64,000 bases of DNA from Deinococcales bacterium (GCA_043775825.1 JAYVRX010000088.1:10598-74597), one strand, 5' to 3'; positions 1-64,000 are shown, counted from the first letter of the stretch. Program-made: numbers and translations. Notes: generated by a model from the sequence alone, not told the origin.

Positions 1-608
1 CCGCGCTTGCCAAAGCGGGTTACAAGACCGACTCGAGCGGTGTGTTGCTGGGCAAGGACGGAAAGGCGCTCGGCACGTTGAAAATCTTGGTCGGTGCGGG
101 CTGGACAGACTTTATTGCGATGGCGCAGGTTGTGTCTGAAAACCTGAAGAAAATCGGCTTGACGACCTCGATTGACCAGCAGCAATGGAGCGGTTACGCG
201 GGCGCACTCCAGACCGCTACCTACGACATGGGCATCTCATGGGGTTGGGGCAACGGCGACACGCCTTACGACCTGTTTTACAAATCGTTTTCACCTGAAC
301 TCTCGGCGGATGTGGGAAAGCAAGCCGATTCCAACCTGACGCGCTACACGAACGCAACCGTAACCAAAGCGCTGCAAACCTTCCGTTCAACGAGCGATGC
401 TGCCGCACGGAAAACCGCCATCAACCAGATGGTCAAGCAAGTCCTGAGCGACGTGCCATTCGTGCCGCTGACTGACCGTTCGCAATTTTGTCTGTTCAAC
501 GCTACGCGCTTCACAAACTTTCCATCGGATAAAAATCCGTACAACGACGGCAGCCCCGATGACGGGATCGGAGCGCGTTTGATGTACCTCAACGTCAGCT
601 TGAAGTAA
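1..608 (+). CDS. ABC transporter substrate-binding protein, family 5 (peptide/oligosaccharide type), C-terminal part; 5' end outside window
   Basis: The frame of ORF 42..608 stays open to the window edge. The tail is SBP family 5-like (GISWGWGNGDTPYDLFYKSF) and is directly followed by cognate permeases. Confidence 0.7.
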   Translation, partial: ALAKAGYKTDSSGVLLGKDGKALGTLKILVGAGWTDFIAMAQVVSENLKKIGLTTSIDQQQWSGYAGALQTATYDMGISWGWGNGDTPYDLFYKSFSPELSADVGKQADSNLTRYTNATVTKALQTFRSTSDAAARKTAINQMVKQVLSDVPFVPLTDRSQFCLFNATRFTNFPSDKNPYNDGSPDDGIGARLMYLNVSLK

Positions 609-633
609 ACGCGAACCTGCGAAACTCGAGGAG

Positions 634-1665
634 TTGAAACCTCGAGTTCCGCGCCCATTTTTGGAAAGGCGTTCCGTGCCGTATTTGCTGCGAAAATTTG
701 GTTTGCTGCTCTTGACGCTTCTGGCGGCGCTGACAATCAATTTCTTCTTGCCTCGGCTCGTGCCGGGCAATCCGATTGGCGCGATGATCGCCAAGTATCA
801 GGGGCGGCTCGATCCGAACGCGGCGAAGGCACTCATGATCGCCTATGGTTTGGAGGGACACGACAAGAATCTGCTGACGCAGTACGGCGATTATCTGGTG
901 AAGTTAACGAGGGGCGATCTGGGTCGTTCGATCAGTTTCTTTCCCGCACCAGTCACGGAGATGATCGGCGGGGCTGCGCCGTGGACGATTGGTCTGGTTG
1001 GGGTCAGCACGATTATCTCGTTTCTGGTCGGGACGGGTTTGGGCGTGTTCACGGCGGCGCGGCGAGGCTCGAGGTTCGCGGATGCGCTCGTGCCGTTGTC
1101 GCTGTTTTTAAATTCTGTGCCTTACTTCTGGTTCGCTCTGATCGCGTTGTACCTGTTCGCATTTTTGCTAGGATGGTTTCCGCTCGGTGGGGGTATAGAC
1201 ATTGTGACGGGTCCGGCTTGGAGTTTGTCATGGATCGGTTCGGTGGTGAGACATTCGATTCTGCCCGGTGCGACCATCGTGCTGACTGCGATGGGCGGTT
1301 GGTTGATCTCGATGCGCAACAATCTCGTCTCAACCCTGGGCGAGGATTACGTGGCGTTCGCTCGAGCCAAGGGGCTGACTGAGTCCGAAGTTTTATACGC
1401 CTACGGCGTTCGCAATGCGATTCTGCCGAGCCTGACCGCATTCGGTATGGCGCTCGGTTTCGTGCTCAGCGGTTCGATTCTGACCGAGGTCGTGTTCGGT
1501 TATCCGGGCTTGGGCACGCTGCTGTATCACGCAGTGACAAGCCTCGATTACCCGCTCATGCAGGCGATTTTCTTGTTTATCTCCTTGGCGGTACTCGTGG
1601 CAAATTTTCTGGTGGATGCGACCTACACCCTGCTTGATCCTCGAGTCCGCGATGGGCGCAGCTAA
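634..1665 (+). CDS. ABC transporter permease (DppB/OppB-like)
   Basis: 343 aa polytopic membrane protein with a binding-protein-dependent transport signature region (FARAKGLTESEVLYAYGVRNAILP). Confidence 0.85.
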   Translation: MKPRVPRPFLERRSVPYLLRKFGLLLLTLLAALTINFFLPRLVPGNPIGAMIAKYQGRLDPNAAKALMIAYGLEGHDKNLLTQYGDYLVKLTRGDLGRSISFFPAPVTEMIGGAAPWTIGLVGVSTIISFLVGTGLGVFTAARRGSRFADALVPLSLFLNSVPYFWFALIALYLFAFLLGWFPLGGGIDIVTGPAWSLSWIGSVVRHSILPGATIVLTAMGGWLISMRNNLVSTLGEDYVAFARAKGLTESEVLYAYGVRNAILPSLTAFGMALGFVLSGSILTEVVFGYPGLGTLLYHAVTSLDYPLMQAIFLFISLAVLVANFLVDATYTLLDPRVRDGRS

Positions 1666-3570
1666 ATGGAGACACTGAGACGGGCTTTTAACGACCGCCG
1701 TGCAGTCGTCGGGGCAACGATTCTGATCGTGTTGGCACTCATGGCGATTCTCGCGCCGCTCTTGGCGCGGTACTCGCCGTCGCAACTCAGCAACGACACT
1801 TGGTTGCGCCCGAGTAGCCAGCACTGGCTGGGGACAACCGCGCTCGGGCAGGACGTGTTCGCGCAACTCGTCTACGGGGCGCGGCTCTCCTTGCTGGTCG
1901 GACTCGTGACGGGTTTGGTCGCCACGGCAATCAGCGTGATCGTCGGGCTGGCGGCGGCGTTCTTCGGCGGGATCGTGGACGACGTGCTCAGCGGCATCAC
2001 GAACATCTTTCTGGTGCTGCCGGGTTTACCGCTCGTGATCGTCACGGCGGCATACCTGCAAGTCTCAGGGGTCGTGCCGGTGATTGCGGTGATCTCGTTC
2101 ACCGGCTGGGCGTGGGGGGCGCGGGTCTTGCGTTCGCAGGCGCTGTCCCTGCGAGACCGCGATTTCGTGCAAGCCGCAATCGCCAGCGGCGAGGGTCCGA
2201 TTCGTGTGATCTTCGCAGAGATTCTGCCGAACATGGTCGGCTTGATCGCCGCGAATTTTTTTGGCGCGGCGCTCTACGCAGTGCTGGCGGAGGCGGGACT
2301 CGAGTTTCTGGGCGTCGGTGATGTCAGTCAGGTTACCTGGGGCACGATGCTCTACTGGGCGCAGTCGAGTCAGGCACTCTTGCAGGGCGCGTGGGCATGG
2401 ATTGCCACACCGGGCTTGTGTATCGCCCTCTTGGGTACGGCATTCGCACTTTTAAATTTCGCGGTGGACGAGGTGGCGAATCCGCGCCTGCGTTCAGAGC
2501 GGGTCGCGGCGCAAACCAAAGCCCAGCCGCTCGAGCCTGCGGGTGCAGCGCCGCCATCCGGTGCGGACGCGCCGCTCTTGAACCTGCGTCATCTCGAGGC
2601 AGGGTACTTAACCGAGCGCGGCACGGTGCGGGCAGTCAAGGACGTGAACCTCTCTATGCGGCGCGGCGAGTTTCTGGGCATCGCGGGCGAATCGGGGTGT
2701 GGCAAGAGCACGCTGGCGTTCGCGGTGGCGGGTTTGCTCCGTTCACCCGGTCAGGTCTTGTCAGGCGAGGTTTGGCTCGACGGGCGCGAAATCGTGCGCC
2801 TGCCGCCTGAGGAACTGCGGGCGACGCGCTGGCGCGATTTTTCGGTGGTCTTTCAGGCATCCATGAACGCACTCAACCCAGTCATGCGCGTCTCCGATCA
2901 AATCGCGGACGCGATGCGGGCACACGGCACGACTGATAAAGCCCTCATCGCGGCTCGAGCACGGGAGCTGTTTGCGATGGTCGGGATTCGCCCGGAGTAC
3001 CTGAGCGCCTACCCGCATCAACTTTCGGGTGGTATGAAGCAGCGCGTGGTGATTGCGATTGCCCTCGCGCTCGAACCGAAACTTGTCATCATGGACGAAC
3101 CGACCACGGCGTTGGATGTGGTGGTGCAACGCTCGATCTTGCAAGAGATTGACGCGGTGCGGCGGCGTTTGAATCTTTCGATCATCTTCATCACGCACGA
3201 CCTGAGTTTATTGGTCGAGATGAGTGACCGCGTGGCGATCATGTACGCCGGGGAAATTGTCGAGCAGGCGAGTTCAAAAGAACTTTATGCGAACCCGCTT
3301 CACCCGTACACGCGGCGTTTAATGAACGCCTTCCCGCCGCTCGAGGGCGAGCGCACACGGCGCGACGGTATCGCGGGACGCCCGCCGGATTTGGGAGCCG
3401 TGATTCAGGGCTGCCCCTTTGCGCCGCGTTGCGAGCGTGCGATGGTGGGACTGTGCGAGGTCGTAGCGCCCGTAAAACTCGAGGTCGCGCCCGATCACGC
3501 AGTCGCCTGTCACCTGTATGACGCAAGCATCATGAAAGGCAGGATTGAACACCATGCAAGCGTCAACTAA
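1666..3570 (+). CDS. Fused ABC permease (DppC-like) / ATP-binding protein (DppD-like)
   Basis: 634 aa. The N-terminal half is a TM permease. The C-terminal half carries Walker A GESGCGKST, signature LSGGMKQR and Walker B VIMDEPT. The start codon directly abuts the stop of the upstream permease gene (1665/1666). Confidence 0.85.
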   Translation: METLRRAFNDRRAVVGATILIVLALMAILAPLLARYSPSQLSNDTWLRPSSQHWLGTTALGQDVFAQLVYGARLSLLVGLVTGLVATAISVIVGLAAAFFGGIVDDVLSGITNIFLVLPGLPLVIVTAAYLQVSGVVPVIAVISFTGWAWGARVLRSQALSLRDRDFVQAAIASGEGPIRVIFAEILPNMVGLIAANFFGAALYAVLAEAGLEFLGVGDVSQVTWGTMLYWAQSSQALLQGAWAWIATPGLCIALLGTAFALLNFAVDEVANPRLRSERVAAQTKAQPLEPAGAAPPSGADAPLLNLRHLEAGYLTERGTVRAVKDVNLSMRRGEFLGIAGESGCGKSTLAFAVAGLLRSPGQVLSGEVWLDGREIVRLPPEELRATRWRDFSVVFQASMNALNPVMRVSDQIADAMRAHGTTDKALIAARARELFAMVGIRPEYLSAYPHQLSGGMKQRVVIAIALALEPKLVIMDEPTTALDVVVQRSILQEIDAVRRRLNLSIIFITHDLSLLVEMSDRVAIMYAGEIVEQASSKELYANPLHPYTRRLMNAFPPLEGERTRRDGIAGRPPDLGAVIQGCPFAPRCERAMVGLCEVVAPVKLEVAPDHAVACHLYDASIMKGRIEHHASVN

Positions 3571-7624: not shown

Positions 7625-7648
7625 GATGTTTGCAAAAAGGAGCGAGGC

Positions 7649-8711: not shown

Positions 8712-8716
8712 CATTC

Positions 8717-8792
<76 letters not shown>

Positions 8793-8819
8793 TAAAACAC
8801 CGCTCTCGCAGCGTGTAAA

Positions 8820-17198: not shown

Positions 17199-17401
17199 GG
17201 CAAGTATCGGTTTAATCTCGAGCAGCAAATCTAAGCTCGAGTTTAAGTTTTTAAGCTCGAGCAATACATGCAGTTGCAACGGGCGTAAAACTTTTTATTC
17301 TGAAAGTAGTACCTCTAGCCCTCAAAGTTTCGTATCTGATTCATGGCTTTGGGGTCAATCCTTGCGTGCCTCTCATGGTTGCTGGTTAGGCTTAAAGTCT
17401 C

Positions 17402-19614: not shown

Positions 19615-22600
19615 ATGAAGCTGAACGACCAACACCATCACAACATGAAGCTCAAAAATCCCCAACAGCGTGAGAACAATGGTATCAACGATGTTCTGCA
19701 TGAATCGATTGTAAAAATTCGTAAGGGCAGGGCGCAGCAAGCAGCGACCCTACGAATCATGATCGTATTTATCCTGGCAATCATCTGTTTTTCAAGCCCC
19801 GCCTTCGCCAAGAAAATCGAAATCTTGCAAGCCGAGAGACTCGAGCTTCGCAACGTCACGACCCCCGACGGTAAAGTCGAAGAGTACGTGATTATCACGG
19901 GCAGACCCGCGATTGTACGAATTGATAAAGACGAACTCGAGGCGAACCGAATCGAATTCAACAAAACGCGCCGCAAGCTTTACATTATTGGGCAGGGCGT
20001 GTTGCGCGGCGAGAAGGAAACCATCGCGGGCAACGATTTTGTCGTGGACACCTCCGACAATTCGCTCGAGGGTGTAGACGTTTTGATCGCCACCACCGAT
20101 ATTGACGTGGTGGGCATCAGCGTCGAGCGTCTGCCAGGGCAACTCGAGGTCAAAAGCGGGTATTTCTCGCCGTGCTCGAGGTGCGGCAAGGTTGGCGACG
20201 CTTACGGCTTTAAGGCGGGCAGTTTGACGTTGTTTCCTGGGGATCGTCTGATCGCTCGAGATGTCACAATTTTGGTGGCGGGCGAACCGATTTTATACTT
20301 GCCGATCATGGTGGTCTTGCTGTCCGAACCGAGCCGTCAACCGCGTTGGGTTTTTAGAATTGGCGATTTTAGTGTTGGCGGTGGTGGGAACGCCAGCACC
20401 GACACGACCTTGCCCAATGTCGAGCTTGATTTACCGTTCACCACAGGCGATTTTGGACTTGGCTTTACGCTGCTGCGTTATTACGGCAACCGCAACCCAG
20501 CCTTTGGGGTTGGCGTGGATTGGACGTTGTTTGACTTGTTTGGTGGCATCAATAAATCTCGAGTTTTCTTTTTGGTACTACCGCCACCTGTTGGGACTAC
20601 TTTGGGCGCACCCTTGGCATACAGGCTCGAGTCTGCTGGTACGTTTGATATCACCCCAGGCGCAGACCCAGAGGATGCCCTGCCAAGTGTTAGGTACAGT
20701 TTCAGCCTCTCAAGGGTCGATGAAGGCATTAACCGCAGTGAAGATTTACGGGGCTTGACCGGACCGCAGCGTCGCACAGATTTTGGTGCGAAATTCAACT
20801 TGGACAATACTTCTTACGCCATCGAACTGGAAATCTCGAGTTACTTTCTCAACCGCGATATCAACCCTGTCACCATTAATCCGCTCAAACCCAGCTTTCT
20901 AAATTCAATTTACAGCTCCAGCAACACGTTGTTTTTCCCCGAATTGCGGTTTACCGCCAAAGATTCGTTGTTACCCAAACTTGGTGGTTTGAGTGTCCAA
21001 AATTTTTCCGTGACGCTTGGCATGATTACCGCGCCTTACAACCGCATCAACCGCAGTGCCCGTTTTGCCGCAGACCCTCTGACGGGTTTGGTGACCGCCG
21101 GCAAGCTTAATGTGAAATACGGTGTTGGATTAACCCTTAACCCTTGGGAGGGCGGGGTTTTAACCTCGAGTTTTAGGTTTGAAGGTCGCTACTACACGAC
21201 CCAAAACCCGAACGGCACTTCAGATATTGAAAAATTAAAACCAACGGGCGAATTTGAACGCAGCGTTGATTACCAGTTTAGTACCAGGTTTTCGCAAAGC
21301 ATTTTTAAGGACGTAGCTCGAGTTGATTTTAACGCCGATTACAGCGAAACCACTGGCGAGAGTCCGTTTGGTTTTGATAGCGTTGCCGTTCGTGAGGCAA
21401 CACTGCGATCCGGTTTGGGGTTGACCATCACACCCGCCACTTGGCTTTCATTCAGTGCTTCACAAAGCCTGAGTGTCACCGCCACCAGAGAACCCAAGTT
21501 TGACGCTGCACAGTTCAGCCTGAACCTCACGCCAAGTTTTGGCAACTTGAGCCTTAGTGCCTCGCACAACCTCGAGACAGGTATTTTGCAATCTTGGAAT
21601 ATCGCGGGCGGCATCAACACGCCGTTTGGCATTACGTTTCGCTTTTCGACTGGACAGTACGTCAACCCCACAACTGGGGGCTTATTTTACCTTTATTCAC
21701 CGTTGCAACTCAGCCTTAATTATTCTGGCGACAGTGGCAAACTGACCTCATCGCTTAGTATCAGTCATGACCTCAATCCTGACGGAGTTGTGCAAAACAT
21801 TGGTTTTACCTTCGGTTATCGTTTTGGTGACACTGAAAACCCGTACAGCTTCACTTTCATTCAAAATCTCACGCCGCCCCAGACCGTGACCGGCAATGAC
21901 GGTAAAAATGCTTTCTCGGTTTTGCGCGGTTCGACCCGTTTTACCTGGCGTGGTTTAAGCATTAGTGTTGACAACAGTTTCGATTTTAGACCTTGGAAAT
22001 ACTCGGTTTTATCCTCACCAACCACCAGCACCTCAAGTTCTGGAAGAATCCCGCCTTCGACCACAGCCCTCAGCGTTTCAGGCGATGCGCCATTCACTTG
22101 GAATCTCAATTTTACCAGCAACCTTGACTTAGCAACGTTCACTTTTTACGAACCCAGATTGAACGGCAGCCTGAGCACCCAAAATCCAGGCTCGAGTTTT
22201 GATCTGACGCTGGGTTTTCAACTCAGGCTGCCCGATGTCGCGCAGAACGATTTTCGATTCTCGAGTCTAAGCTTGCAATTTGGTTGGGATGTCGTTCCAG
22301 GATTCAGCGTTTCTGGTTCGATAACCTATTCAAGAAACCTTGCAGGAGGCATTTTCTTTGATACCTTCAACTTGAATCCTTTGGCGTTCACGGCAGCCTT
22401 TGCCTCCGAAGGCTCGAGCAAACCCGATGTGTTTTTCAGCGTGGTTTTGAAAGGCACTTATGTCTTTGATGATGATCCAAAGTCGAACGGGATTCCAAAT
22501 TTCACTGGGACTGGCAGCCCGTACCGCACCACTTGGCGACCCGTGTTTATTCTGACTTTTGACCTGTGCTGCTATACCTTGCGTTTTACTTTTGACAGCA

Positions 22601-22728
22601 CTCCAGAAAAAGGCTCGAGTTTTACTTTTAGTTTTATTCTGCCTTTTGGTGGCGAGCAAAAAGCGATTGTCAGTGACCCCGACGGTCTGCGCTTTCCAGT
22701 GCTGCCATTTATTCCACCAATCAAATAA
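19615..22728 (+). CDS. Very large outer-membrane protein with N-terminal OstA/LptD-N-like domain (LptD-like)
   Basis: 1037 aa. After the hydrophobic segment MIVFILAIICFSSPAFA there is an OstA-like beta-jellyroll region (IEILQAERLELRN...IEFNKTRRKLYIIGQGVL...GYFSPCSRC). About 800 aa of beta-strand-like alternating sequence follow. The start is ambiguous (19615, 19645 or 19759). Confidence 0.6.
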   Translation: MKLNDQHHHNMKLKNPQQRENNGINDVLHESIVKIRKGRAQQAATLRIMIVFILAIICFSSPAFAKKIEILQAERLELRNVTTPDGKVEEYVIITGRPAIVRIDKDELEANRIEFNKTRRKLYIIGQGVLRGEKETIAGNDFVVDTSDNSLEGVDVLIATTDIDVVGISVERLPGQLEVKSGYFSPCSRCGKVGDAYGFKAGSLTLFPGDRLIARDVTILVAGEPILYLPIMVVLLSEPSRQPRWVFRIGDFSVGGGGNASTDTTLPNVELDLPFTTGDFGLGFTLLRYYGNRNPAFGVGVDWTLFDLFGGINKSRVFFLVLPPPVGTTLGAPLAYRLESAGTFDITPGADPEDALPSVRYSFSLSRVDEGINRSEDLRGLTGPQRRTDFGAKFNLDNTSYAIELEISSYFLNRDINPVTINPLKPSFLNSIYSSSNTLFFPELRFTAKDSLLPKLGGLSVQNFSVTLGMITAPYNRINRSARFAADPLTGLVTAGKLNVKYGVGLTLNPWEGGVLTSSFRFEGRYYTTQNPNGTSDIEKLKPTGEFERSVDYQFSTRFSQSIFKDVARVDFNADYSETTGESPFGFDSVAVREATLRSGLGLTITPATWLSFSASQSLSVTATREPKFDAAQFSLNLTPSFGNLSLSASHNLETGILQSWNIAGGINTPFGITFRFSTGQYVNPTTGGLFYLYSPLQLSLNYSGDSGKLTSSLSISHDLNPDGVVQNIGFTFGYRFGDTENPYSFTFIQNLTPPQTVTGNDGKNAFSVLRGSTRFTWRGLSISVDNSFDFRPWKYSVLSSPTTSTSSSGRIPPSTTALSVSGDAPFTWNLNFTSNLDLATFTFYEPRLNGSLSTQNPGSSFDLTLGFQLRLPDVAQNDFRFSSLSLQFGWDVVPGFSVSGSITYSRNLAGGIFFDTFNLNPLAFTAAFASEGSSKPDVFFSVVLKGTYVFDDDPKSNGIPNFTGTGSPYRTTWRPVFILTFDLCCYTLRFTFDSTPEKGSSFTFSFILPFGGEQKAIVSDPDGLRFPVLPFIPPIK

Positions 22729-22731: not shown

Positions 22732-23994
22732 GTGTTCATGAAAAAATTTCTGTTGTTGTCAATCCTGATTTTAACCTCGAGTTGCACGGGTTCTTTCGAG
22801 GACAGTGGAACACCCGTGCGTGTGGTGGTCAGTGTCAATCCAGATTTAAGCAAGAATATTTCCTGTATCGGTCAACAATTGGAAGTCCCCAAAAGCCCTG
22901 GCTTGGTTTTGCTTGACCCAAATCGTTTTTCAAGCTCAGTCAACCAAGTTAATTCTTGCGGTGCATTTTTTCCCCTGCAAGGAATCGGCTTTGATGTCGT
23001 TAACGGGGCAGAAACAATTGGTTCGCCCAGTGTTTTTGTTAGTGTTCCCAGTCAGTCGGTGGTAAAACAACTGACTTATTTCCGTTCTGCAAACAACACC
23101 GTGCAAGTCCCAAATACCCTGGCGCAAAAACTCGAGTTTAAGTACACACCAATAGACAACAAAGATGATCCCGATTTTTGTCCAACACAATTGTCAGTCA
23201 GTCGAGACAATAGATTCCTGGCTGTTCTGGACAATCCAAATGATGTCAATGAATTTTGTGGTAAAAACATAACACGGTTACCGCGCGTTGTTATTTTTAA
23301 TATTGCAGATGGCAGCATTTTTAAAAGAATTGAAGTTTCTAAAAATAACTTCATCGACGGAACGAGTAAGGAAATCTCAATCTCGCTTTTAAACAATCGG
23401 TTGTATGTGCTTGGTGAATTCGGTAGTAAATTTAGAATCTCGAGTTTTAATTTATTGGTAACCGATCCAAATCTTGATTTCATCAAATCCGATGAGTCAA
23501 GATTGCCGCCAACATTCTCGAGTTTTCCGACCAATAACCCAAAAGTTGATCTCAGCATCGTTCAAAATGGCTTGCTGGCAAGTTTATCCAATGACAATGG
23601 CGGACAGGTTTTCCCAATTGTTGAAGATTTGACCCAAAGAACCATTGCCTTTGGTGATGAGCGATTGGCTGGCAGCTTGGCAACAGATTTACCCATAGGA
23701 AAAACCAACACGATTCGTTCCAATGCTTTCAGTTCTTCAATCGTATCAAATTTTACCTTGTATTTGCGTCCAAGCAATATTTTGTTCCAAAGAAACACGC
23801 AATTTGCCGCACAAACAATAGCTTCACCAATTGATGCGACCTTTCCAGCCGACAATACGATCTGGGTTTTAAACACCAAACGTCTTTTTAAAGTTGATAC
23901 CCGAGATTTCCCTGAAAAACCTCAGTTTGATACGGGTATCGACTTTAGCGATTTAAATCCTAGCAATTTGGTCTGGGTTTTAGACGAGAATTAA
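22732..23994 (+). CDS. Hypothetical lipoprotein
   Basis: Signal + lipobox-like MKKFLLLSILILTSSC. 420 aa, low GC, starting 4 nt after the LptD-like stop. Confidence 0.5.
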   Translation: MFMKKFLLLSILILTSSCTGSFEDSGTPVRVVVSVNPDLSKNISCIGQQLEVPKSPGLVLLDPNRFSSSVNQVNSCGAFFPLQGIGFDVVNGAETIGSPSVFVSVPSQSVVKQLTYFRSANNTVQVPNTLAQKLEFKYTPIDNKDDPDFCPTQLSVSRDNRFLAVLDNPNDVNEFCGKNITRLPRVVIFNIADGSIFKRIEVSKNNFIDGTSKEISISLLNNRLYVLGEFGSKFRISSFNLLVTDPNLDFIKSDESRLPPTFSSFPTNNPKVDLSIVQNGLLASLSNDNGGQVFPIVEDLTQRTIAFGDERLAGSLATDLPIGKTNTIRSNAFSSSIVSNFTLYLRPSNILFQRNTQFAAQTIASPIDATFPADNTIWVLNTKRLFKVDTRDFPEKPQFDTGIDFSDLNPSNLVWVLDEN

Positions 23995-26184: not shown

Positions 26185-27981
26185 TTAGCGGATAACACGA
26201 CCTTGCTTGTCGAGTTTAATGTTCCAGTACGCCGCCATGACTTTTTTCACGGCTGGCAGTGCCACGCCCGAACCTTCAACGCCGTTCTCAAAAAAGGCAA
26301 CCACAACCAAATTGGGGTTATCAAAAGGACCATAACCCATATACCAGGCATGGTCACGGTTATGACCTTGTGGTGATTGTGCCGTTCCAGTTTTTCCAGC
26401 CGTGACAATCGGGAAAACATTCGCGCCCAAGACTTCTTTAGCGGTGCCGATACGGGTGGTCATCAACATGCCCTCTTTGAGCATTGACCAGTATTTGCCC
26501 GAAATTTGGGTCATGGGTTTTGGTGGTACGGGTTTGTTGTCAATGGCTTTGATGACTGTTAATTCGGGGCGTTTACCATTGTTGACGATGGTTGCCAGCA
26601 TTCGTGCGATTTGCAAAGGATTTGCCCGAAGGCGTTGACCAATCGAGTAATTAAGCGGCACACCATTGTCCCAGGTTTTCTTAGCCCGCTCCAAAGCAAC
26701 TGTTGGCACTTCATCAAACTTTTCACCGAGAAGCTCGATACCGCTCGATTGCCCAAAACCAAAGTCTTTGGCACGCCTGGCAATGTCGTTGACAAACCGT
26801 TCTGGTCCGTAACTGACCGCCGATTGGTAATACCAGGTATTGCACGAATTTGCGATTGCCGCTCGAGCGTCCATAACACCCATATTCCTAAACCGATTCC
26901 AGTTTTTCCAGAAACGACCACCGTAAAACCAACTGCTGTAACACTGAAATACCCGATTGCCAAACCCATTCTCGAGCAACGTGCTGGCGGTCACCAATTT
27001 AAAGGTCGAACCTGGCTCCCAGACGTTGACCATGCGGTTGAACATGGGTTTGTACTTGGTGTCCAATTGGGCTTTGATGCCTTCTTTGGCGGTGGGTTTG
27101 ACCGAAAACCAATTCGGATCGTATTTGGGTCCAACCGCGAACGCCAACACCTGACCCGTTTTTGGATTTAAAGCCACTATCGCCCCCCTGGCGGATTCGA
27201 CAAGTGGTATACCGTGTTGTTTATTCAATCGGTTTATTTTCTCTTTGGCTTCAGTGATGGCTTGTTCGGCGGCACGTTGCAATTTGGGAATAATGCTGAG
27301 GGTTACGGTCTTGCCCCTGATCGCCTCTTTGACCGTTCGTTCGGAAACCACCCGACGCGCGGCATCAACCTCAACATTTTTTAAACCGTCCTTTCCTCGC
27401 AAAATATCGTTCAACCCAAACTCGAGACCGGCTTTGGGCAGAATATCGGTCAGTGCCGCTCCAGCTTCGACATCTTTGGCGCTGGCTTGGGACATGTAAC
27501 CCAACAAATTTCCTGCCATGCCACTAAGGTAGATCCGTTCAACCCTAGAGCGAACTTCGATCACGCTCTCTTGACCCGCAAGCCATTCCTGAAGCGGTAA
27601 AATGCTGTCCTGCGGCACGTCTTTGGTCAAAATGGCAGGCTCAAATTTGTTGGTCACCGTTGGAAGTGGCAATTTTATTTTTGCCAACCGTGCAATACGG
27701 TCTAAGAATTTAACCTCGCCGCCGTGGTAGATAAGTTCAATCGCTTTGCGGTTGGTTGCCATGACCGAACCGTCCGCCGCATGAATATCGCCCCGAACGG
27801 CACGAATAACGGTCAAATCGGTGGTGTTATTCTCGCTCGAGGTGACAAATTCGTAATGCCGCACCACTTGTAAGTAATATAAACGCCCCAAGAACACCAG
27901 CAAAACCAAGCTCATAAACAAAGTCACCCGAAGGATTGGATTGCTCGAGATTTTAATCTTTTCGTTATCGCGTTGATTCAT
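26185..27981 (-). CDS. mrdA: Penicillin-binding protein 2 (elongasome transpeptidase)
   Basis: 598 aa with an N-terminal TM segment, SxxK motif GSTFKLV, SxN-like region and KTGTA motif. Sits directly downstream of mreCD. Confidence 0.85.
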   Translation of the reverse strand: MNQRDNEKIKISSNPILRVTLFMSLVLLVFLGRLYYLQVVRHYEFVTSSENNTTDLTVIRAVRGDIHAADGSVMATNRKAIELIYHGGEVKFLDRIARLAKIKLPLPTVTNKFEPAILTKDVPQDSILPLQEWLAGQESVIEVRSRVERIYLSGMAGNLLGYMSQASAKDVEAGAALTDILPKAGLEFGLNDILRGKDGLKNVEVDAARRVVSERTVKEAIRGKTVTLSIIPKLQRAAEQAITEAKEKINRLNKQHGIPLVESARGAIVALNPKTGQVLAFAVGPKYDPNWFSVKPTAKEGIKAQLDTKYKPMFNRMVNVWEPGSTFKLVTASTLLENGFGNRVFQCYSSWFYGGRFWKNWNRFRNMGVMDARAAIANSCNTWYYQSAVSYGPERFVNDIARRAKDFGFGQSSGIELLGEKFDEVPTVALERAKKTWDNGVPLNYSIGQRLRANPLQIARMLATIVNNGKRPELTVIKAIDNKPVPPKPMTQISGKYWSMLKEGMLMTTRIGTAKEVLGANVFPIVTAGKTGTAQSPQGHNRDHAWYMGYGPFDNPNLVVVAFFENGVEGSGVALPAVKKVMAAYWNIKLDKQGRVIR

Positions 27982-30924: not shown

Positions 30925-32295
30925 GTGTCACAGCTTGGACCTAAACTAACTCAAATGCTCCTGCTCGAGTTCGGCGATGCGCTTGCCGTGATGGCTTGCG
31001 GAATCGCAGCAGCCCAAACCCTGGGTTTGCACCCCATCGGTTGGGTGGTTTGCGTGTTGTTTGGTCTTGCGTCTTGGCAGTTCAAACGCACCCGTTGGTA
31101 CGGTTTAACGCTTTTGTGGTGTCCTGGCATCATCGGGTTTTTAGCCACCAACAACGATCCTTTAACCAGGGCTTACGCGGCAATTCTGGGAATGCTGGGC
31201 TTTTACGCGATCTGGTGCGTCTTGCAAGCAAGGGATGAACACTCGAGCACGGGGTGGTGGGCGGCTGTGCTGTTGGTGGTTTGGCAACCCAGCAGTTTTG
31301 CACTGTTGGGCATCACATTTCTGGCAGCCCAAGCCACCACCCGTTGGCGCTCTCAACTTTCTCCAGCTCGAGGAGCAATGCAACACGGCAGCCTACAACG
31401 TTGGTCGGGTGTGGTGATGCTGGCGTTGGTCGTTTCTGGCTTAAGTTTGTTGCTGCCGCCGCCAGCACCCTGGCGTGTGCAAGATATTTTGCTACCAAGG
31501 CTCGAGTTACCAGCACCCAAAACCAGTGTCTCATATCCTCAAGCCGATTTCAGCACCAAGGTCAAACCGTTTGAAGTCAAAAGCTTTGATCCTCGAGCCA
31601 TTGTGGTTGGCATTTTGTTGCTCGGCGCGGTGATGTTGTGGCAATCGCAGGCGCGTTCGACAAAGGGACGGGTTTTGGGGTCGGATACTCAGGTCAAGAA
31701 AAAACCCAAGGCGAAATTTGATTGGGTGCTGGTGTTTGTGCTCGCCAGCGTTTTGGTGATGTTATTTGCGTTTTGGACGATTAAAACCCTCTCGAGCAAC
31801 GTAATTCCGATTCAAATCCCAAGTTTGCCAAGTTGGTTCTCGAACATGTTAATTGTTGTTTTTGTTGCAGGCTTAATGATTTCATTGGTGCATTGGATTC
31901 GGGTTTACCTGACAAAACACGCCCTCAAACCAATCGATATCATTGAGTTTCCAAGCAAGAAGCAAAAAAATCTCGAGCTTCCAGAAAACCGTGTCCGAGC
32001 CGCTTACGCCATGTGGTTGCATTTCTTGGAAAGCCTCGAGTTGCCCCGAGAAAAAGTTGAAACACCCTTCGAGTTTTCAAGGCGCGTTCATGTCCATCAC
32101 CCAAACTTGCGCGAGTCCACGAACGCCTTGACCCAAGCTTACGAGCGCGTGCGGTACGGCTCGAGTATCTTGGAATCGGATGCCCTAAAAGCCGAGGAAG
32201 CATTGCACGAATGGCGCTTAAGTGTTGCAGCGACACCAGCCGATGACCGTGTTACAAGCTTGACACTCGAGAAACACGTCCGATTGCTAGACTGA
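30925..32295 (+). CDS. Polytopic membrane protein with C-terminal DUF4129-like domain
   Basis: 456 aa with multiple TM segments. The C-terminal segment RVRAAYAMWLHFLESLELPREKVETPFEF...AYERVRYG resembles DUF4129 (from memory). Confidence 0.55.
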   Translation: MSQLGPKLTQMLLLEFGDALAVMACGIAAAQTLGLHPIGWVVCVLFGLASWQFKRTRWYGLTLLWCPGIIGFLATNNDPLTRAYAAILGMLGFYAIWCVLQARDEHSSTGWWAAVLLVVWQPSSFALLGITFLAAQATTRWRSQLSPARGAMQHGSLQRWSGVVMLALVVSGLSLLLPPPAPWRVQDILLPRLELPAPKTSVSYPQADFSTKVKPFEVKSFDPRAIVVGILLLGAVMLWQSQARSTKGRVLGSDTQVKKKPKAKFDWVLVFVLASVLVMLFAFWTIKTLSSNVIPIQIPSLPSWFSNMLIVVFVAGLMISLVHWIRVYLTKHALKPIDIIEFPSKKQKNLELPENRVRAAYAMWLHFLESLELPREKVETPFEFSRRVHVHHPNLRESTNALTQAYERVRYGSSILESDALKAEEALHEWRLSVAATPADDRVTSLTLEKHVRLLD

Positions 32296-32302
32296 GCACA
32301 CT

Positions 32303-33706
32303 TTGAACGCTGTCACAGAGCACCTCGAGCCGATACAACCTTTAAGGGATGCTTTGTGGGTGCTGGTTTTTACGGCATTGATCGCATCGGGTTGGTTGAA
32401 TTGGTTGCCGCTTGGCGTGGTGATTGCCGCCGTGATTTTGCCATTTTTGATTCGTCGCAACGCCAAAACGCAAATGTTCGCGCCTTGGGCAAGCGTTTAC
32501 GCTGGCGCGAGCGCTTTTTTGATGCTGCCACTGAATTTTTCAAACTTACTCGAGCGACTTTCTTGGATGGCACTGGGAATTTTGCTGGCATTCCTGATCG
32601 GTTTGGCATTTGATGGCATCCGCGAGCGTAACCATTTCGCGTGGCTGGCGGGTTTAACCTTGCTGATCCTGAACCCAAGTGCGACGTCTGTGATTGGCGT
32701 GATAGGGCTTTGTGTGCTTGGTGCTCTTCAGGCTCGAGCGTCCAGAATTCGGGTTGGTGTGCAGTTTCAAAACTGTTCTGGCATGGTTGTGCTGGCAGTT
32801 GTGGGTTTAACGATAGCGGCATTTAGTATTTTGCTGACGCGTCCAGCAGAAATTCAATTCAACAACGCAACCATGCCAGTTTCAAAACCCAAAGTAGAAA
32901 CAAAACCTAAAACCACCGACTCGAGCCTTGAAACCACAAGCTCAGGTCGCTCGAGCGTGAAAAAAGTTCAAAGCCTTGATTCTGGATTGCAGAATGCTTT
33001 GATGTTGGCGAATTTTGCGCTTTTGCTGGTTATGATGGCATTGCTTTTTGTATTGCTGCGAAATCGAACGCAAACCGCCAAGGGACGGCGCAAACCCGAA
33101 CTTTCAGAATTGATTCCGTTGCTCGGTGCATTCATCGTTTTGCTGGCATTGTTCGTTTGGGCGAGCACACCACCGCCTCGTCTTGAGGGCTTAAATAAAC
33201 CAAGAGAAATTCAGAGCGCAAGCCAAAATTCATCTCGAGACAAACCAACTTTGCCGCCCGAAACCAAGCTCGAGCAAACCAATCGTTCAAGCCCAATGTT
33301 GACGTTACTGATGCTCTTGGTTGTGATGGCGGCAGCGTACTGGGCACACAGAATCACTCGAGAGAAACTCGGAAATTCAATCCCAGAAGAACCCGAAACC
33401 AACAGCAACTCGAGTTTCAAGAAACAAATTCAAGCCACCAATCGAGTTCGAGAAGCGTATCGGGTCTTTCTCGAGCTTTGCCACGCGCAAGGGGTCAGAC
33501 GTGCGAACGACCAGACTTCGCTCGAGTTCGCGGCATGGGTTGGAACACTTTTCCCAGACTCGAGCATTGACGTTGAAGAATTGACCAAACTCTATGAACC
33601 CGTGCGTTACGGGCAACTCAGCGACGAAACTGGCGCACTCGAGGCAGAAGGTATTGTTGAGGCACTCAAACAAAATTTCAAACCCGAGCCTTTAGAGGAG
33701 AAATAA
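32303..33706 (+). CDS. Polytopic membrane protein with C-terminal DUF4129-like domain (paralog)
   Basis: 467 aa with the same architecture. The C-terminal segment is NRVREAYRVFLELCHAQGVRRANDQTSLEF...LYEPVRYG. Confidence 0.55.
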   Translation: MNAVTEHLEPIQPLRDALWVLVFTALIASGWLNWLPLGVVIAAVILPFLIRRNAKTQMFAPWASVYAGASAFLMLPLNFSNLLERLSWMALGILLAFLIGLAFDGIRERNHFAWLAGLTLLILNPSATSVIGVIGLCVLGALQARASRIRVGVQFQNCSGMVVLAVVGLTIAAFSILLTRPAEIQFNNATMPVSKPKVETKPKTTDSSLETTSSGRSSVKKVQSLDSGLQNALMLANFALLLVMMALLFVLLRNRTQTAKGRRKPELSELIPLLGAFIVLLALFVWASTPPPRLEGLNKPREIQSASQNSSRDKPTLPPETKLEQTNRSSPMLTLLMLLVVMAAAYWAHRITREKLGNSIPEEPETNSNSSFKKQIQATNRVREAYRVFLELCHAQGVRRANDQTSLEFAAWVGTLFPDSSIDVEELTKLYEPVRYGQLSDETGALEAEGIVEALKQNFKPEPLEEK

Positions 33707-40630: not shown

Positions 40631-40661
40631 GCAACAAAAAACCCTCGAGATTCTCGAGGGT
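40631..40661 (-). terminator. Rho-independent terminator after rpsI, stem built from two CTCGAG copies
   Basis: On the minus strand: ACCCUCGAG-AAU-CUCGAGGGU (9-bp stem) followed by UUUUUUGUUG. Confidence 0.75.
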
Positions 40662-42691: not shown

Positions 42692-42720
42692 AGGGCGCTC
42701 GAGAGGGCGCTCTTTTTGTT
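42692..42720 (+). terminator. Candidate terminator/attenuator between rplY and pth
   Basis: AGGGCGC-ucgagagg-GCGCUCU (7 bp including one G.U) followed by UUUUGUU. It sits only about 11 nt before the pth ATG. Confidence 0.4.
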
Positions 42721-48755: not shown

Positions 48756-48789
48756 TAGAGGCTCGAGTGTTTGAATGCTCGAGCCTCTA
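48756..48789 (+). other. 12-bp-stem hairpin made from two CTCGAG copies, downstream of the methyltransferase gene
   Basis: TAGAGGCTCGAG-tgtttgaatg-CTCGAGCCTCTA. No U-tract follows it. Confidence 0.5.
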
Positions 48790-54177: not shown

Positions 54178-56163
54178 TTATTTCTTGTCTTTCACCCAAT
54201 ATTTGCGCCCCGCGATCTGCATAAAACTTGGGTCTTTGCGCCCGCTTGGCAAGAAGATAAATTGTTTGATCACGCGTCCGTCGTCGTACTTAAATTCGAT
54301 GGTGTTGCCGTACAGTTTGTAAGCACCCATGTTGCTGCGCGAATTAGAACCTGCCACAGATGTTGTCACGCTGCCGCTTTGGGTTCCCGTGTCGGTTGCG
54401 CCAAAAAAGAAACTGCCGTTCGCCTCTCGAGAAAACCGTCCGTCTTTGCGCAGCAGCAAATCCACCGATGATGACGAACCGCCCGTGCCAATCACCGCGC
54501 CTTGAACCACCAACGATTCGTAGGCGGCGTTCAACTTGAGTCCGTCCAAAGGCTCGAGGATATTGTACTGATCGCCGTCAATGATGAAGCCTGACTTGCC
54601 GCGTTTCCAAGTTACCGGTTTTTCAAGACCAAATTGAATCGTATTGCCTTTGACACTGTAGACCTCACAGACTGGAAATCCGCTCGGATAGGTGCGGGTG
54701 CAGTCGGCGTCCATCAGACCTTCGGTATCTTCTAGATCGTCGCTGTAAACATAACCGTTTTTTTGAAACAACAAATACTGGTAGCAGATGCCGCCACACG
54801 CCAAATAACCGTTTAAGACAACTTGGCTGACGCCGTAAAAGTACCGTCCCTCGAGTCCACCCACACCTGGGGCGGCTGGGGCTTTGGTCTTGCCAAATTT
54901 TGGGTTTGGACGCGCTGTGACTTGCCGTGCGCATTCAATCTTGGGATTCCTGCCAAAACTGAATTCTTGGCGTCCCAGTTCATCCTCTTGGTAATAACCA
55001 GTCTGGTCATCCAAGCCGCCCTGAACAAAATCCAAACTCGAGTAATCATCGCTCAATTTGCCTGTGATGTTGACCTTGTAACTGCCCTCAGTACCAACAT
55101 AACGATAACGCCGTTGATTCAGAATCTCGAGTGTTCCAGCCGATTGCCCAGAACCATCAATTTTCAGGCAGGGATACAAGCCCGCTTGCGGGTCTTTGCG
55201 TTTAAAGCGAAGTTGCTCGAGTTGCTCGTTACCGCCGCGCCCGAAGCAACGAAAGTCAAGGCTTTTGTCTTCGTTGCCAAGGTCGTACAACCAGATTTGT
55301 GCGCCCTCGTAGCGTTTAAACGTGTAAAAATGATTGCGTTTGGATGCCAGCGCCCCAGAGTTGAAAAAAAGATCGTAACCGTCCATCCGAAACGTGCCGC
55401 CCGAGACGGCAGTCCCGATTCCAACGCGGTACTTGCGACCCGCAAGAATTTGCAAGGTCAGGCTGGGAGCACTGTACTTCTCGCCGCGAACCTCTGGGTA
55501 GCAGTGGTACTCGTCAGGAATTGGTTCTTTTTCGGGGTCGAGTTTGGTTTTGGCAAACGCAACATAATCAAAAGCTGGCAGCGGCTCGAGTTTGCTTGGC
55601 GTTGAAGTCGCCGTTGTGGGATTTGGAGTTTTGCCTGGAACAACACTTGTACCAGTCGTCGTTGGCGTGCCGAGAGGATTGGTTGAAGGCGTGCTCGGCT
55701 TGAGGCTGTTTGCCGCCTGGGCGGCAATCAGAGCGTACTCGTTTGGGTACAAGACCTTTAAATTAAAATCGTCATTCAGAGCTTTCTCGAGGTTTTCGCA
55801 ATCCGTCTCAGGGGCTGGGCTGGATTGATCGAGTTGGGCGTACAGCTCGGCTCGTTTACCTTCAACGACGCTATCGAGTCTGGCTTTTCCGTCCCTAATC
55901 AGTTGCAAAACTTTGGCTTCAATGCTTGGCAAATCCATTCTGGTTCGCCACGCCTCGAGCACTTGCGCATTTTGGGTTTTCAAATCTGGCACGCGTTCAT
56001 CGCACCATTCCTTAACCAGTTTTCCAGTCGCTCCAGCCGCGTAAATCGTGCTGATGGCACGAATGTACTCTGGACTGGCAGTTTGAGCCAAGCCAGGAAG
56101 ACCAAAGCTGGCGCAGAGCAACACGATTGCCACCCAAGTCTGCCGAAAACGATTCGAGGTCAT
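54178..56163 (-). CDS. Large secreted hypothetical protein with Pro/Thr-rich linker
   Basis: 661 aa with a signal peptide ...LLCASFGLPGLAQT, a helical N-domain of about 150 aa, the linker PSTPSTNPLGTPTTTGTSVVPGKTPNPTTATSTPS, and a Gly/Tyr-rich beta-type C-terminal region of about 470 aa. Confidence 0.5.
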   Translation of the reverse strand: MTSNRFRQTWVAIVLLCASFGLPGLAQTASPEYIRAISTIYAAGATGKLVKEWCDERVPDLKTQNAQVLEAWRTRMDLPSIEAKVLQLIRDGKARLDSVVEGKRAELYAQLDQSSPAPETDCENLEKALNDDFNLKVLYPNEYALIAAQAANSLKPSTPSTNPLGTPTTTGTSVVPGKTPNPTTATSTPSKLEPLPAFDYVAFAKTKLDPEKEPIPDEYHCYPEVRGEKYSAPSLTLQILAGRKYRVGIGTAVSGGTFRMDGYDLFFNSGALASKRNHFYTFKRYEGAQIWLYDLGNEDKSLDFRCFGRGGNEQLEQLRFKRKDPQAGLYPCLKIDGSGQSAGTLEILNQRRYRYVGTEGSYKVNITGKLSDDYSSLDFVQGGLDDQTGYYQEDELGRQEFSFGRNPKIECARQVTARPNPKFGKTKAPAAPGVGGLEGRYFYGVSQVVLNGYLACGGICYQYLLFQKNGYVYSDDLEDTEGLMDADCTRTYPSGFPVCEVYSVKGNTIQFGLEKPVTWKRGKSGFIIDGDQYNILEPLDGLKLNAAYESLVVQGAVIGTGGSSSSVDLLLRKDGRFSREANGSFFFGATDTGTQSGSVTTSVAGSNSRSNMGAYKLYGNTIEFKYDDGRVIKQFIFLPSGRKDPSFMQIAGRKYWVKDKK

Positions 56164-57154: not shown

Positions 57155-57204
57155 GTAAAAAGCGTACCCGAGGTTTGGTTTTGCGGCAAGGACGGGGCAG
57201 ACAC

Positions 57205-58326: not shown

Positions 58327-58343
58327 GGTTGCCTTCCAAAAAT

Positions 58344-59675: not shown

Positions 59676-59743
59676 ACTAAATTCCTAACTTTTTGAAGAC
59701 TCGAGCGTTTGAGATTGAGGCAATCAATTCATGAATCTATTTT

Positions 59744-60361: not shown

Positions 60362-60366
60362 TCCAT

Positions 60367-61113: not shown

Positions 61114-61132
61114 GAAACACTCCTTACCGCAC

Positions 61133-61169
61133 TTGGTTTCTCGAGAATTTGATTTTCTCGAGAAACCAA
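61133..61169 (-). other. 15-bp perfect-stem hairpin containing two CTCGAG copies, between the SBP and cyclase genes
   Basis: TTGGTTTCTCGAGAA-tttgatt-TTCTCGAGAAACCAA. No U-tract follows it on the coding (minus) strand. Confidence 0.5.
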
Positions 61170-61194
61170 AATTCAGTTTGTCAATCTCTAATCG

Positions 61195-62373: not shown

Positions 62374-62567
62374 ACCCTCTCCTTTCATTTCCCTCGAGCG
62401 ACCCCGAGTTGAAATCCAAAAAATGGCGTGCGCGATATTCAAATGACTGGTTTTTCAATTGAGGCTACCCTAAAAACACGACTCAACTCGAGCTGTCTTG
62501 GATGTTCTATTTTGTGTGCTTGTTCTTCGTGTTCCATCATACCGAACCGAGACAGTGAAATGTCGAG

Positions 62568-62602
62568 ACAAAAACTCGAGCTTCCAAATTTGAAAGCTCG
62601 AG
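62568..62602 (-). terminator. Rho-independent terminator after the SPFH gene, stem built from two CTCGAG copies
   Basis: On the minus strand: CUCGAGCUUUCAAAUUUGGAAGCUCGAG (13 of 14 positions pair) followed by UUUUUGUCUCG. Confidence 0.65.
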
Positions 62603-62624
62603 CCTGAAAGCCAATGGCGAATCG

Positions 62625-63584: not shown

Positions 63585-63655
63585 AGGGTTTTGAATAAAC
63601 CCTTATGAATGACAATACGCGATGCTCGAGAAAAGCGTTCCAGAAAAGTTACGAA

Positions 63656-63761
63656 GTGCGAATCTCGAGGTATTCAGAACCGTGCGAATCTCGAGGTGGT
63701 CGAAACCGTGCGAATCTCGGGGTAGAATTGACGGGTGCGAATTGGATTGCTTTCAGACACC
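63656..63761 (+). repeat. Four tandem 26-27-bp direct repeats; the last unit contains the start codon of the downstream gene
   Basis: Units start at 63656, 63682, 63708 and 63735. They read GTGCGAATCTCGAGGTattcagaacc, GTGCGAATCTCGAGGTggtcgaaacc, GTGCGAATCTCGGGGTagaattgacgg and GTGCGAATTGGattg... Confidence 0.8.
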
Positions 63762-64000
63762 CACGGTTTTATGGGCGCAGATATTCTCGAGGCACTGGCG
63801 GGCGTGGACGAAATCTGGCACGCGGGCGATCTTGGTTCGCTCGAGATGATTGATACGCTTCAAGCCGTTGCCCCAGTGGTTGCCGTAATTGGCAATATTG
63901 ACTCTCACGCGACATTCTCGAGCATTCCAGAAGAACAGGTTTTGATTCGTGAAGGTTTTAAAGTCTTGATACGCCACATTGTCGGCACGCCAGGTCGTTA
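63735..64000 (+). CDS. Metallophosphoesterase (YfcE/MJ0936-like), 3' end outside window
   Basis: Frame open to the window end, so it is absent from the ORF track. A GTG start gives M/V-RIGLLSDTHGF...WHAGDLGS...VIGNID, the phosphoesterase motifs I-III. Confidence 0.65.
   Translation, partial: MRIGLLSDTHGFMGADILEALAGVDEIWHAGDLGSLEMIDTLQAVAPVVAVIGNIDSHATFSSIPEEQVLIREGFKVLIRHIVGTPGR

Follow-up and report, generated by a model that had tools for sequence, protein, structure and literature searches.

CTCGAG in a Deinococcales lineage: a hyper-abundant hexamer that resembles the highly iterated palindromes of cyanobacteria

Introduction

Why should a bacterial genome write the same six-base palindrome about once in every 150 bp? 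The question is raised by a 64,000-nt stretch of Deinococcales bacterium DNA (positions 1–64000; hereafter the window), throughout which the hexamer CTCGAG recurs. An earlier reading of this DNA, the original prediction, likened the word to HIP1 (GCGATCGC), the highly iterated palindrome (HIP) of cyanobacteria. The HIPs of that phylum have been an open problem for about thirty years and have been studied almost only there. The motif described here looks like a second independent case, a HIP-like word outside the cyanobacteria.

Results

CTCGAG is about 30-fold over-represented in the window

The window contains 430 copies of CTCGAG, with a mean of one per 149 bp (6.7 per kb). The original prediction had put the number at about 430, and its counts in six bins (77, 17, 29, 35, 97 and 175) were identical to ours.

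1–64000, no strand assigned: dispersed CTCGAG population of 430 copies, with 233 in the frame CTC GAG, 54 in nCT CGA Gnn, 86 in nnC TCG AGn and 56 fully intergenic.

Chance predicts far fewer copies. Base composition gives an expectation of 16.7, Markov models of order 0 to 4 with the sites masked give 16.3, 7.9, 6.3, 9.0 and 14.3, and 100 dinucleotide-preserving shuffles of the window yielded 11.9 ± 3.5 copies with a maximum of 20. The excess amounts to about 30-fold over chance, in line with the 25- to 30-fold enrichment estimated earlier. The maximal-order Markov check that the original prediction had proposed returned an unmasked expectation of 364. The calculation is circular, since CTCGAG itself supplies 430 of the 482 CTCGA and 430 of the 641 TCGA, and the figure was dropped as a baseline in favour of the site-masked models (6–16 copies), under which the excess stands. 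CTCGAG is the top hexamer of the window, 2.4-fold above its own sub-words; the palindromic hexamer next in number, TTTAAA, has 50 copies, and the 18 one-mismatch variants of CTCGAG have 2–28 copies each. With 430 copies against 6–16, the word is an extreme palindromic outlier of the size that marks the HIP class (at least about 15 times expectation).

The density of CTCGAG does not depend on local GC content (r = 0.07 in 2-kb bins with GC 0.43–0.625), and the positions flanking the sites carry at most 0.12 bit of information; both results agree with the earlier claims that the motif occupies GC-rich and GC-poor parts alike and has no extended flanking consensus. The copies lie almost at random along the window: the coefficient of variation of their spacing is 0.89, where random placement would give 0.99 ± 0.05. 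So frequent a word might be put down to a compositional or Markov artefact, to mutation bias alone, or to some dispersed repeat or mobile element, and the expectation of 364 would favour the first of them. Such explanations are barely credible when that figure is circular and the masked models give 6–16, when the same excess is found at GC contents from 0.455 to 0.623, when sites are lost 4.7-fold less often than generic hexamers (see below), which mutation bias alone does not predict, and when the flanks lack a consensus. A repeat of the repetitive extragenic palindrome (REP) or miniature inverted-repeat transposable element (MITE) type was rejected on this last ground and because the top 8-mers reach only 46–66 copies, spread over many flanks. 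A Chi-like hotspot was also rejected: CTCGAG is its own reverse complement, so it has no asymmetry.

The first 8000 nt of the window stand apart in composition (GC 0.58–0.62, against about 0.50 elsewhere) and carry an oligopeptide-type ABC transporter and a family 4 glycosyl hydrolase. CTCGAG density is normal there in three of the four 2-kb bins (10, 17 and 14 sites), the first bin having only six.

The excess is independent of reading frame and coding status

The gene map of the window comprises 66 genes covering 91.5% of its length, and it confirmed that CTCGAG occurs in genes of both strands and in the spacers. The hexamer writes 235 of the 320 Leu-Glu pairs (73%), against 31.6 (10%) expected from codon usage. 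In the nCT CGA G frame it fills 54 of 135 possible tripeptides, against 3.0 expected, and in the nnC TCG AG frame 87 of 185, against 5.9, so that each of the three frames lies 7–18 times above the codon-usage expectation. Density is higher in intergenic DNA (10.3 per kb) than in coding DNA (6.4 per kb) and is about doubled 20–60 bp outside gene ends; none of the three tRNA genes contains a copy. A second gene-calling pass gave the same frame and intergenic figures. Like the HIP class, then, CTCGAG is independent of frame and present in non-coding DNA.

These counts bear directly on the alternative, named in the original prediction, that Leu-Glu codon-pair or amino-acid usage is the full cause. 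Although the CTC GAG frame accounts for 54% of the sites, expectation is exceeded 15–18 times in each of the other two, intergenic DNA is the densest of all, Leu-Glu is written as CTCGAG far beyond what codon usage allows, and GAGCTC, which would encode Glu-Leu, has no copy. The frame and intergenic counts of the two gene-calling passes rule this alternative out, and we give it next to no chance: the CTCGAG excess is a DNA-level signal. The motif distorts the proteome, Leu-Glu dipeptides numbering 320 in the window against 135.5 expected from amino-acid frequencies (2.4 times).

The excess spans a clade and is graded across the phylum

Relatives of the window were fetched with the following marker gene.

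26185–27981, minus strand: penicillin-binding protein 2 (PBP2) gene, phylogenetic marker, with five CTCGAG copies.

The PBP2 scan, with one genome per species, returned 80 loci. Homologues had 86–95% identity in metagenomes, about 60% in metagenome-assembled genomes (MAGs) to which NCBI gives the name 'Deinococcales bacterium', and 43–45% in Marinithermus, Meiothermus and Thermus. A neighbour-joining tree of PBP2 placed the MAG clade that includes the window as sister to the Thermaceae, with the Deinococcaceae apart; this placement is tentative because it comes from a single gene and midpoint rooting.

All 18 loci of the clade, with PBP2 identities of 45–93% and GC contents of 0.455–0.623, carry CTCGAG at 3.8–7.5 per kb, and together they hold 1311 copies in 223,657 bp against 59 expected. 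The hexamer ranks first in 17 of the 18 and second, by one copy, in the 1.9-kb locus L002. The excess in all frames and in intergenic DNA is found in both the low-GC and the high-GC sub-clades. It is common to the whole lineage, as in HIPs, and the alternative that it is limited to the window does not hold. Within PBP2 itself, all five CTCGAG copies of the window gene are common to L004 and four of the five to L001. Two Leu-Glu positions hold CTCGAG in 12 and 10 of 20 genomes, as deep as Meiothermus and Thermus, and the remaining positions are mostly lineage-specific, some coinciding with replacements to Leu-Glu. One 4.5-kb locus, L017, has 6.0 CTCGAG per kb, yet its PBP2 groups in the tree with L048, a Deinococcaceae MAG with 0.37 per kb; the trait may be of greater age, or more patchily distributed, than the main clade indicates, unless this placement in the tree is unreliable.

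Outside the clade the signal changes in strength and finally in sign. In Meiothermus and Calidithermus, Leu-Glu is encoded by CTCGAG 461 times against 132 expected, the other two frames have 46 against 3.9 and 53 against 13.5, intergenic density is 1.7 per kb, and Leu-Glu reaches 1.47 times expectation. In Marinithermus CTCGAG is the top hexamer, with 79 copies in 21.7 kb (3.6 per kb). The excess in the clade is 2–3 times stronger than in Meiothermus or Marinithermus. In Thermus the count is explained by codon usage (170 against 178 expected). In Deinococcus (21 loci, a subset of L019–L080) only 33 copies were found against 139 expected, with none against about 15 in the two frames that do not encode Leu-Glu, and CTCGAG ranks with the least frequent of the 16 NTCGAN words, a deviation opposite in sign to that of the sister lineages. 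The phylum thus presents a graded series, from hyper-abundant in the clade through moderate in Meiothermus and Marinithermus and neutral in Thermus to avoided in Deinococcus.

Thermus brings in another explanation. In its loci (L041, L050, L054, L061, L070, L075, L077 and L079), 142 of the 175 TCGA (81%) lie inside CTCGAG, and this avoidance of TCGA elsewhere would fit TaqI-type restriction pressure together with protection or retention of the CTCGAG context. CTCGAG might accordingly be a shield against TCGA-cutting, TaqI-like nucleases: N6-methyladenine (m6A) in CTCG(m6A)G would protect TCGA, which would then survive only as CTCGAG. M.TaqI and M.PaeR7I modify the same adenine in their TCGA and CTCGAG sites, and TaqI-type methyltransferases are common in Thermus. 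Protection, however, would cover the retention of sites but not a 30-fold gain; TCGA in other contexts is not depleted in the window (211 copies); the Thermus count itself equals the codon-usage expectation; and the four-genome patterns described below include sites created at positions that never held TCGA. We consider the shield most improbable. The link to TaqI drawn in the original prediction is only tangential.

The original prediction also held that CTCGAG runs against the usual avoidance of palindromes, and the window does avoid many others: 20 palindromic hexamers have no copy, and GGCC is nearly absent (3 against 286 expected). GAGCTC, the SacI site, which has the same half-sites in swapped order, is missing altogether from 287.7 kb of clade DNA (the window, L001–L017 and L020; 75.6 expected) but is not avoided in Meiothermus or Thermus. 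Several further words deviate as well. GGCC occurs 0–1 times per 12–22 kb in the low-GC relatives L001, L004, L006 and L008–L010 and shows mild depletion only in the high-GC sub-clade. In the window CCGG (76 against 286) and CTAG (38 against 249) are scarce. GATC is strongly depleted in L006, L008 and L010 (6 against 85, 11 against 75 and 28 against 83), whereas the window, with 219 against 249, shows no such depletion. All over the clade AATT reaches about double its expected number (in the window, 417 against 218); according to Blow et al. (2016; PMC4752239), AATT and TTAA are methylated by Meiothermus enzymes for which no partner nuclease is entered.

Sites are retained beyond generic hexamers and continue to be gained and lost

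Positions 16.5–37.5 kb of the window were aligned to L004 at 83.7% nucleotide identity. CTCGAG was in place in both sequences at 104 of 128 window sites (81%), against 35.6% for other hexamers, with 24 sites found only in the window and 25 only in L004. With both directions counted, 82.9% of CTCGAG were unchanged, against 38.1% of generic hexamers, and a change to a one-step neighbour was 4.7-fold rarer (8.0% against 37.2%); the one-mismatch neighbours themselves were kept in only 31% of cases. Retention extends to synonymous positions: third codon positions were identical at 89.8% within CTCGAG and 66.5% outside, and where the dipeptide was conserved an in-frame CTCGAG was kept in 93% of cases against 48% for other codon pairs. 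CTCGAG is thus conserved above neutral expectation, as HIPs are.

Because the loss rate is far below that of generic hexamers, mutation bias is excluded as the sole cause, and the exchange pattern, as read from the aligned sequences, points to a fixation bias. Its scaled strength would be about ln 30, or about 3.4, a rough value that assumes stationarity and is taken from the abundance ratio of about 30. The product of gain excess and loss deficit in a pairwise alignment is an identity with that ratio, and only absolute exchange rates were used.

Turnover is ongoing. Among four roughly equidistant genomes, 27 sites were present in all four, 10 were lost in one, 6 were found in one only and 6 were split two to two. 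One of the lineage-specific gains is the following.

20558–20563, plus strand: gained CTCGAG read as TCT CGA G (Ser-Arg), where three relatives have TCC AGG G (Ser-Arg).

The gain took three nucleotide changes, all synonymous, between conserved flanks. At about 26.3–26.4 kb of the window (columns 10226 and 10243 of the four-genome alignment), L004 has lost a site through five changes (CTCGAG to GATGCA) and has a new CTCGAG 17 bp upstream that is absent from the other three genomes; this may be local compensation or coincidence.

Orphan methyltransferases for CTCGAG are on record in the sister family

The original prediction proposed a solitary CTCGAG methyltransferase. In table S3 of Blow et al. 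(2016; PMC4752239), active type II m6A enzymes with the specificity 'cTcgAg' are listed for Meiothermus ruber (M.Mru1279II, Mrub_2385; 99.5% of sites modified) and M. chliarophilus (M.Mch9957IV; 94.1%), and the same m6A specificity is listed for Marinithermus hydrothermalis (M.Mhy14884I, Marky_0034, an Eco57I-domain protein; 94.6%). Those entries name no partner nuclease for any of the three, and none gives a CTCGAG methyltransferase activity for Allomeiothermus (M.) silvanus. The portions of the main text searched describe an orphan CTCGAG enzyme in Nocardia, where the motif clusters at the replication origin, and contain neither a mention of Thermaceae nor a report of genome-wide CTCGAG hyper-abundance (PMC4752239). 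On the megaplasmid of A. silvanus, CTCGAG density over 50 kb is 1.26 per kb. That the enzyme-carrying Thermaceae are the genomes with the weaker CTCGAG excess is suggestive.

The corresponding enzyme was sought in the window and the 80 loci with an NPPY/DPPY motif scan and with tblastn, using as query a sequence identical to the M.TaqI chain of PDB 1AQJ. Neither search gave a match, so that window and loci are without a gamma-class methyltransferase; no nuclease gene was found in the 64-kb window either. Against a large protein set the M.TaqI query returned close TaqI-like enzymes only. A representative search gave 150 gamma-class enzymes; following these up by Leu-Glu excess or composition, by cluster name, and through the contigs of P0324, P0320, P0252, P0245 and P0303 led only to CTCGAG-poor genomes. 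Of 1,731 plasmid records matched by tblastn, neither the 60 top-ranked rows nor the ten most frequent genera included any Deinococcota. A metagenome scan with motif I 'LEP' as CTCGAGCC plus GNPPY gave 48 loci, none from the clade, and a homologue search with the family from that scan gave 4,844 proteins at E ≤ 1e-10 with no Deinococcota name in the 120 best. The proposal of a solitary methyltransferase has genuine though indirect support in the Meiothermus and Marinithermus entries; the enzyme itself was not found in the roughly 290 kb of clade DNA.

The searches also turned up CTCGAG-rich DNA of other origin. Three metagenome contigs (L344–L346; GC 0.70–0.71) are Planctomycetota-like, with PSCyt2/PSD1 genes, and encode an Eco57I/M_Eco57I_C methyltransferase in a conserved order (methyltransferase, DAGK, PhoU, polyphosphate kinase) with no adjoining nuclease; they have 3.1–5.0 CTCGAG per kb, but this is only 2.8–5 times the neighbour words, and TCGA is generally high. 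A 9.7-kb viral contig from IMG/VR (L196; GC 0.64) combines 57 CTCGAG (5.9 per kb) with a complete lack of GAGCTC, the signature of the clade, and its ten open reading frames gave no Pfam match. It is the only CTCGAG-rich viral contig with that signature: most of the others are equally rich in GAGCTC, so their counts are no evidence of it.

A methyltransferase could also act without giving the sites any function. In the repair ratchet put forward by Elhai for HIPs (PMC4390886), methyl-directed or very-short-patch-like repair, on the model of Vsr and Dcm, would correct near-cognate mismatches to CTCGAG, and the sites would be a by-product. Conversion bias of this kind would leave the same signature as selection: sites would be lost less and gained more, and their neighbours would not last. 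The excess also disregards coding status and frame, is costly to proteins through the 2.4-fold Leu-Glu load, and is near random in spacing, all as such a drive would have it. Against it, no repair nuclease or methyltransferase was identified in the window, nor a methyltransferase in the clade loci; a Vsr-type enzyme would find no deamination mismatch at m6A, as it does at 5-methylcytosine (m5C); where close genomes differ at a site by a single mismatch, the differences fall on all six positions and are not concentrated at one base; and neutral replenishment has been judged insufficient for HIP1 (PMC5861425). On this evidence we hold a functionless drive to be rather unlikely.

Paired copies form hairpins in intergenic DNA

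Several intergenic hairpins of the window are built from CTCGAG.

40642–40660, minus strand: terminator-like hairpin of two copies (CCCTCGAG ATT CTCGAGGG), predicted −16.7 kcal/mol.
48757–48788, plus strand: intergenic hairpin, its stem formed by two copies and their complementary flanks (AGAGGCTCGAG...CTCGAGCCTCT), predicted −25.4 kcal/mol.
61135–61167, minus strand: intergenic hairpin of two copies (GGTTTCTCGAG...CTCGAGAAACC), predicted about −22 kcal/mol on either strand.
17217–17261, no strand assigned: three intergenic copies 19–20 bp apart, the last two able to pair (hairpin 17233–17262).
42695–42710, no strand assigned: intergenic hairpin with CTCGAG in the stem core.

The first lies between two genes of the minus strand; on that strand, to which the upstream gene belongs, its stem runs into U6, as in a canonical terminator. 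One or two copies of CTCGAG make up the stem core of these hairpins. Since any two copies of a palindrome can pair, these hairpins are a consequence of abundance and no evidence of purpose.

Such pairs recall the DNA uptake sequences (DUS) of Neisseria and the uptake signal sequences (USS) of Pasteurellaceae, and CTCGAG could likewise be a methylation-independent tag, read bare by a DNA-uptake receptor or by a nucleoid or segregation protein. Thermus and Deinococcus are naturally competent genera, the terminator-like pairing resembles that of DUS and USS pairs, and the word is about 27 times denser in self DNA than in random DNA. The pairing is nevertheless not diagnostic, for the reason just given; known uptake sequences are 9–12 bp long, non-palindromic and spaced about once per kb; a 6-mer without flanking information is a weak determinant of specificity; and the documented biochemistry of CTCGAG in the sister family is methylation. 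A bare binding tag therefore appears quite unlikely to us.

The gene content of the window is that of ordinary housekeeping functions (LptF/G, PBP2, ABC transporters and an SLH coiled-coil protein) together with several family-less proteins. Three of the latter, of 1037, 661 and 420 aa (19615–22728, 54178–56163 and 22732–23994), match no Pfam or NCBIfam family, and two adjacent paralogous DUF4129 proteins are encoded at 30925–33706.

Discussion

Taken together, the results favour, with a probability of roughly 55%, the reading that CTCGAG is a HIP-like highly iterated palindrome under DNA-level selection throughout genome and lineage, the target of an orphan CTCG(m6A)G methyltransferase and kept by fixation bias. 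On this reading the clade would possess an orphan N6-adenine methyltransferase for CTCGAG, conserved within the lineage and passed down from the ancestor that it shares with the Thermaceae, and methylation would make the sites valuable. By analogy with HIP1, methylated sites may serve a DNA transaction such as the marking or processing of kin DNA in natural transformation and homologous recombination, or alternatively methyl-guided repair. Changes that create a site would then be fixed more often than neutral ones, and changes that destroy a site less often. The equilibrium would hold about 30 times more CTCGAG than one-mismatch neighbours, and would override weak selection on codons and even on amino acids.

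Recombination or transformation is our leading guess for the function. A correlation across genomes between the abundance of HIP1 and proteins of type IV secretion systems has been reported, and its authors read it as a link to DNA uptake. In Synechococcus PCC 7002, methylated HIP1 is reported to raise natural transformation more than 100-fold (bioRxiv 10.1101/2024.09.10.611283). These two findings are our reason for placing a methylation-dependent part in DNA exchange or recombination ahead of the functionless repair ratchet, which comes second.

Several points weigh against the methylated, HIP-like interpretation. Support for the mechanism is only partial, since the evidence for a methyltransferase is carried over from the sister family and what the sites are for is argued from analogy. 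No gamma-class methyltransferase gene was found in the 64-kb window or the 224 kb of clade loci, in genomes of several Mb each. The association of enzyme and excess in the Thermaceae comes from four species and short loci, and its sole enzyme-less species was sampled on a megaplasmid only. In aligned sequences, selection cannot be told from a bias in gene conversion or repair; the near-random spacing means that there is no sign of a spacing-dependent function; and transformation and recombination enter by analogy alone, as no result of this analysis bears on them. Finally, CTCGAG, at one per 149 bp, is about seven times denser than HIP1, at about one per 1000 nt (PMC4390886), and the analogy may not carry over.

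A broader proposal can be entertained only tentatively. CTCG(m6A)G may be a phylum-level 'self code' of the Deinococcota, its density marking kin DNA for uptake, recombination or repair in the Thermaceae and the uncultured clade, while the Deinococcaceae purge the word, in convergence with HIP1. If this were true, CTCGAG would have been driven to one copy per 150 bp with about 1% of dipeptides rewritten, and HIP1 would have been reinvented independently in a setting testable in the tractable, naturally competent Thermus and Meiothermus.

Whatever maintains it, a second independent case with another word, probably another methyl mark, a several-fold higher density and a graded series of relatives would offer a comparative handle on how such palindromes originate and are maintained. 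Because an orphan enzyme is documented in the culturable Meiothermus ruber and in Marinithermus, and Thermus is highly transformable, selection and the repair ratchet can be set against each other directly. The findings predict that XhoI and TaqI digestion, and the transformation of these organisms, depend on methylation state. A DNA-level pressure can evidently more than double the frequency of a dipeptide in a proteome, which matters for models of protein and codon evolution, and in metagenomes CTCGAG density provides a strong signature for binning and for recognising the taxon.

Among known systems, XhoI/PaeR7I restriction-modification has the same recognition sequence and the same methylated adenine. 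Restriction hosts, however, avoid their site, as Deinococcus avoids CTCGAG, whereas the clade is enriched in it. A type II restriction target of the host was rejected as an identity for CTCGAG, given the 30-fold enrichment in place of avoidance and a window without nuclease or methyltransferase. Very-short-patch repair by Dcm/Vsr and the abundance of CCWGG in Escherichia coli show, as a precedent, that a repair bias tied to a methyltransferase can alter how common a word is compared with its neighbours; there the effect is small and needs m5C deamination, whereas the CTCGAG excess is about 30-fold and its expected mark is m6A. DUS and USS are, like CTCGAG, dispersed, lineage-specific, over-represented short words that are tolerated in genes and often paired in terminators, but they are asymmetric, number about one per kb, and have a known receptor that reads them in unmethylated form. 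By form CTCGAG was rejected as such a sequence, being a 6-bp palindrome at 6.7 per kb with uninformative flanks and no asymmetric core of 9–12 bp. The orphan CTCG(m6A)G enzymes of Thermaceae and Nocardia share the word itself and are listed without a partner nuclease, and their Thermaceae hosts show a weaker excess. We found no literature linking CTCGAG hyper-abundance to the Deinococcota, although a text search cannot prove absence.

The closest parallel is with HIP1 and the alternate HIPs. HIP1 proper was rejected as the identity of the motif, as its core CGATCG occurs once in the window and the organism belongs to the Deinococcota and not to the cyanobacteria. CTCGAG differs from HIP1 in phylum and in word, in its expected mark (m6A on the hexamer, against m5C and m6A on nested sites) and in that its one-mismatch neighbours are not conserved, whereas HIP1* sites are. 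For the distribution of HIPs a periodicity of 10–90 kb has been reported (Xu et al., 2018). HIP1 sites are conserved beyond neutral expectation (PMC5861425), HIP1 and the alternate HIPs have cognate methyltransferases (PMC4390886), and the alternates include a hexamer, GGCGCC, with its own methyltransferase, besides GCsGC and rCCGGy (Elhai, 2015; PMC4390886). CTCGAG and these words have in common a short GC-containing palindrome, tens of times over expectation, that occurs in all frames and in non-coding DNA, is lineage-wide and conserved beyond neutral expectation, and is matched by orphan methyltransferases for the same word, in the case of CTCGAG those of the sister family (PMC4390886, PMC5861425). 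The analogy with HIP1 drawn in the original prediction is thus supported and, in excess, frames, lineage spread and conservation, extended.

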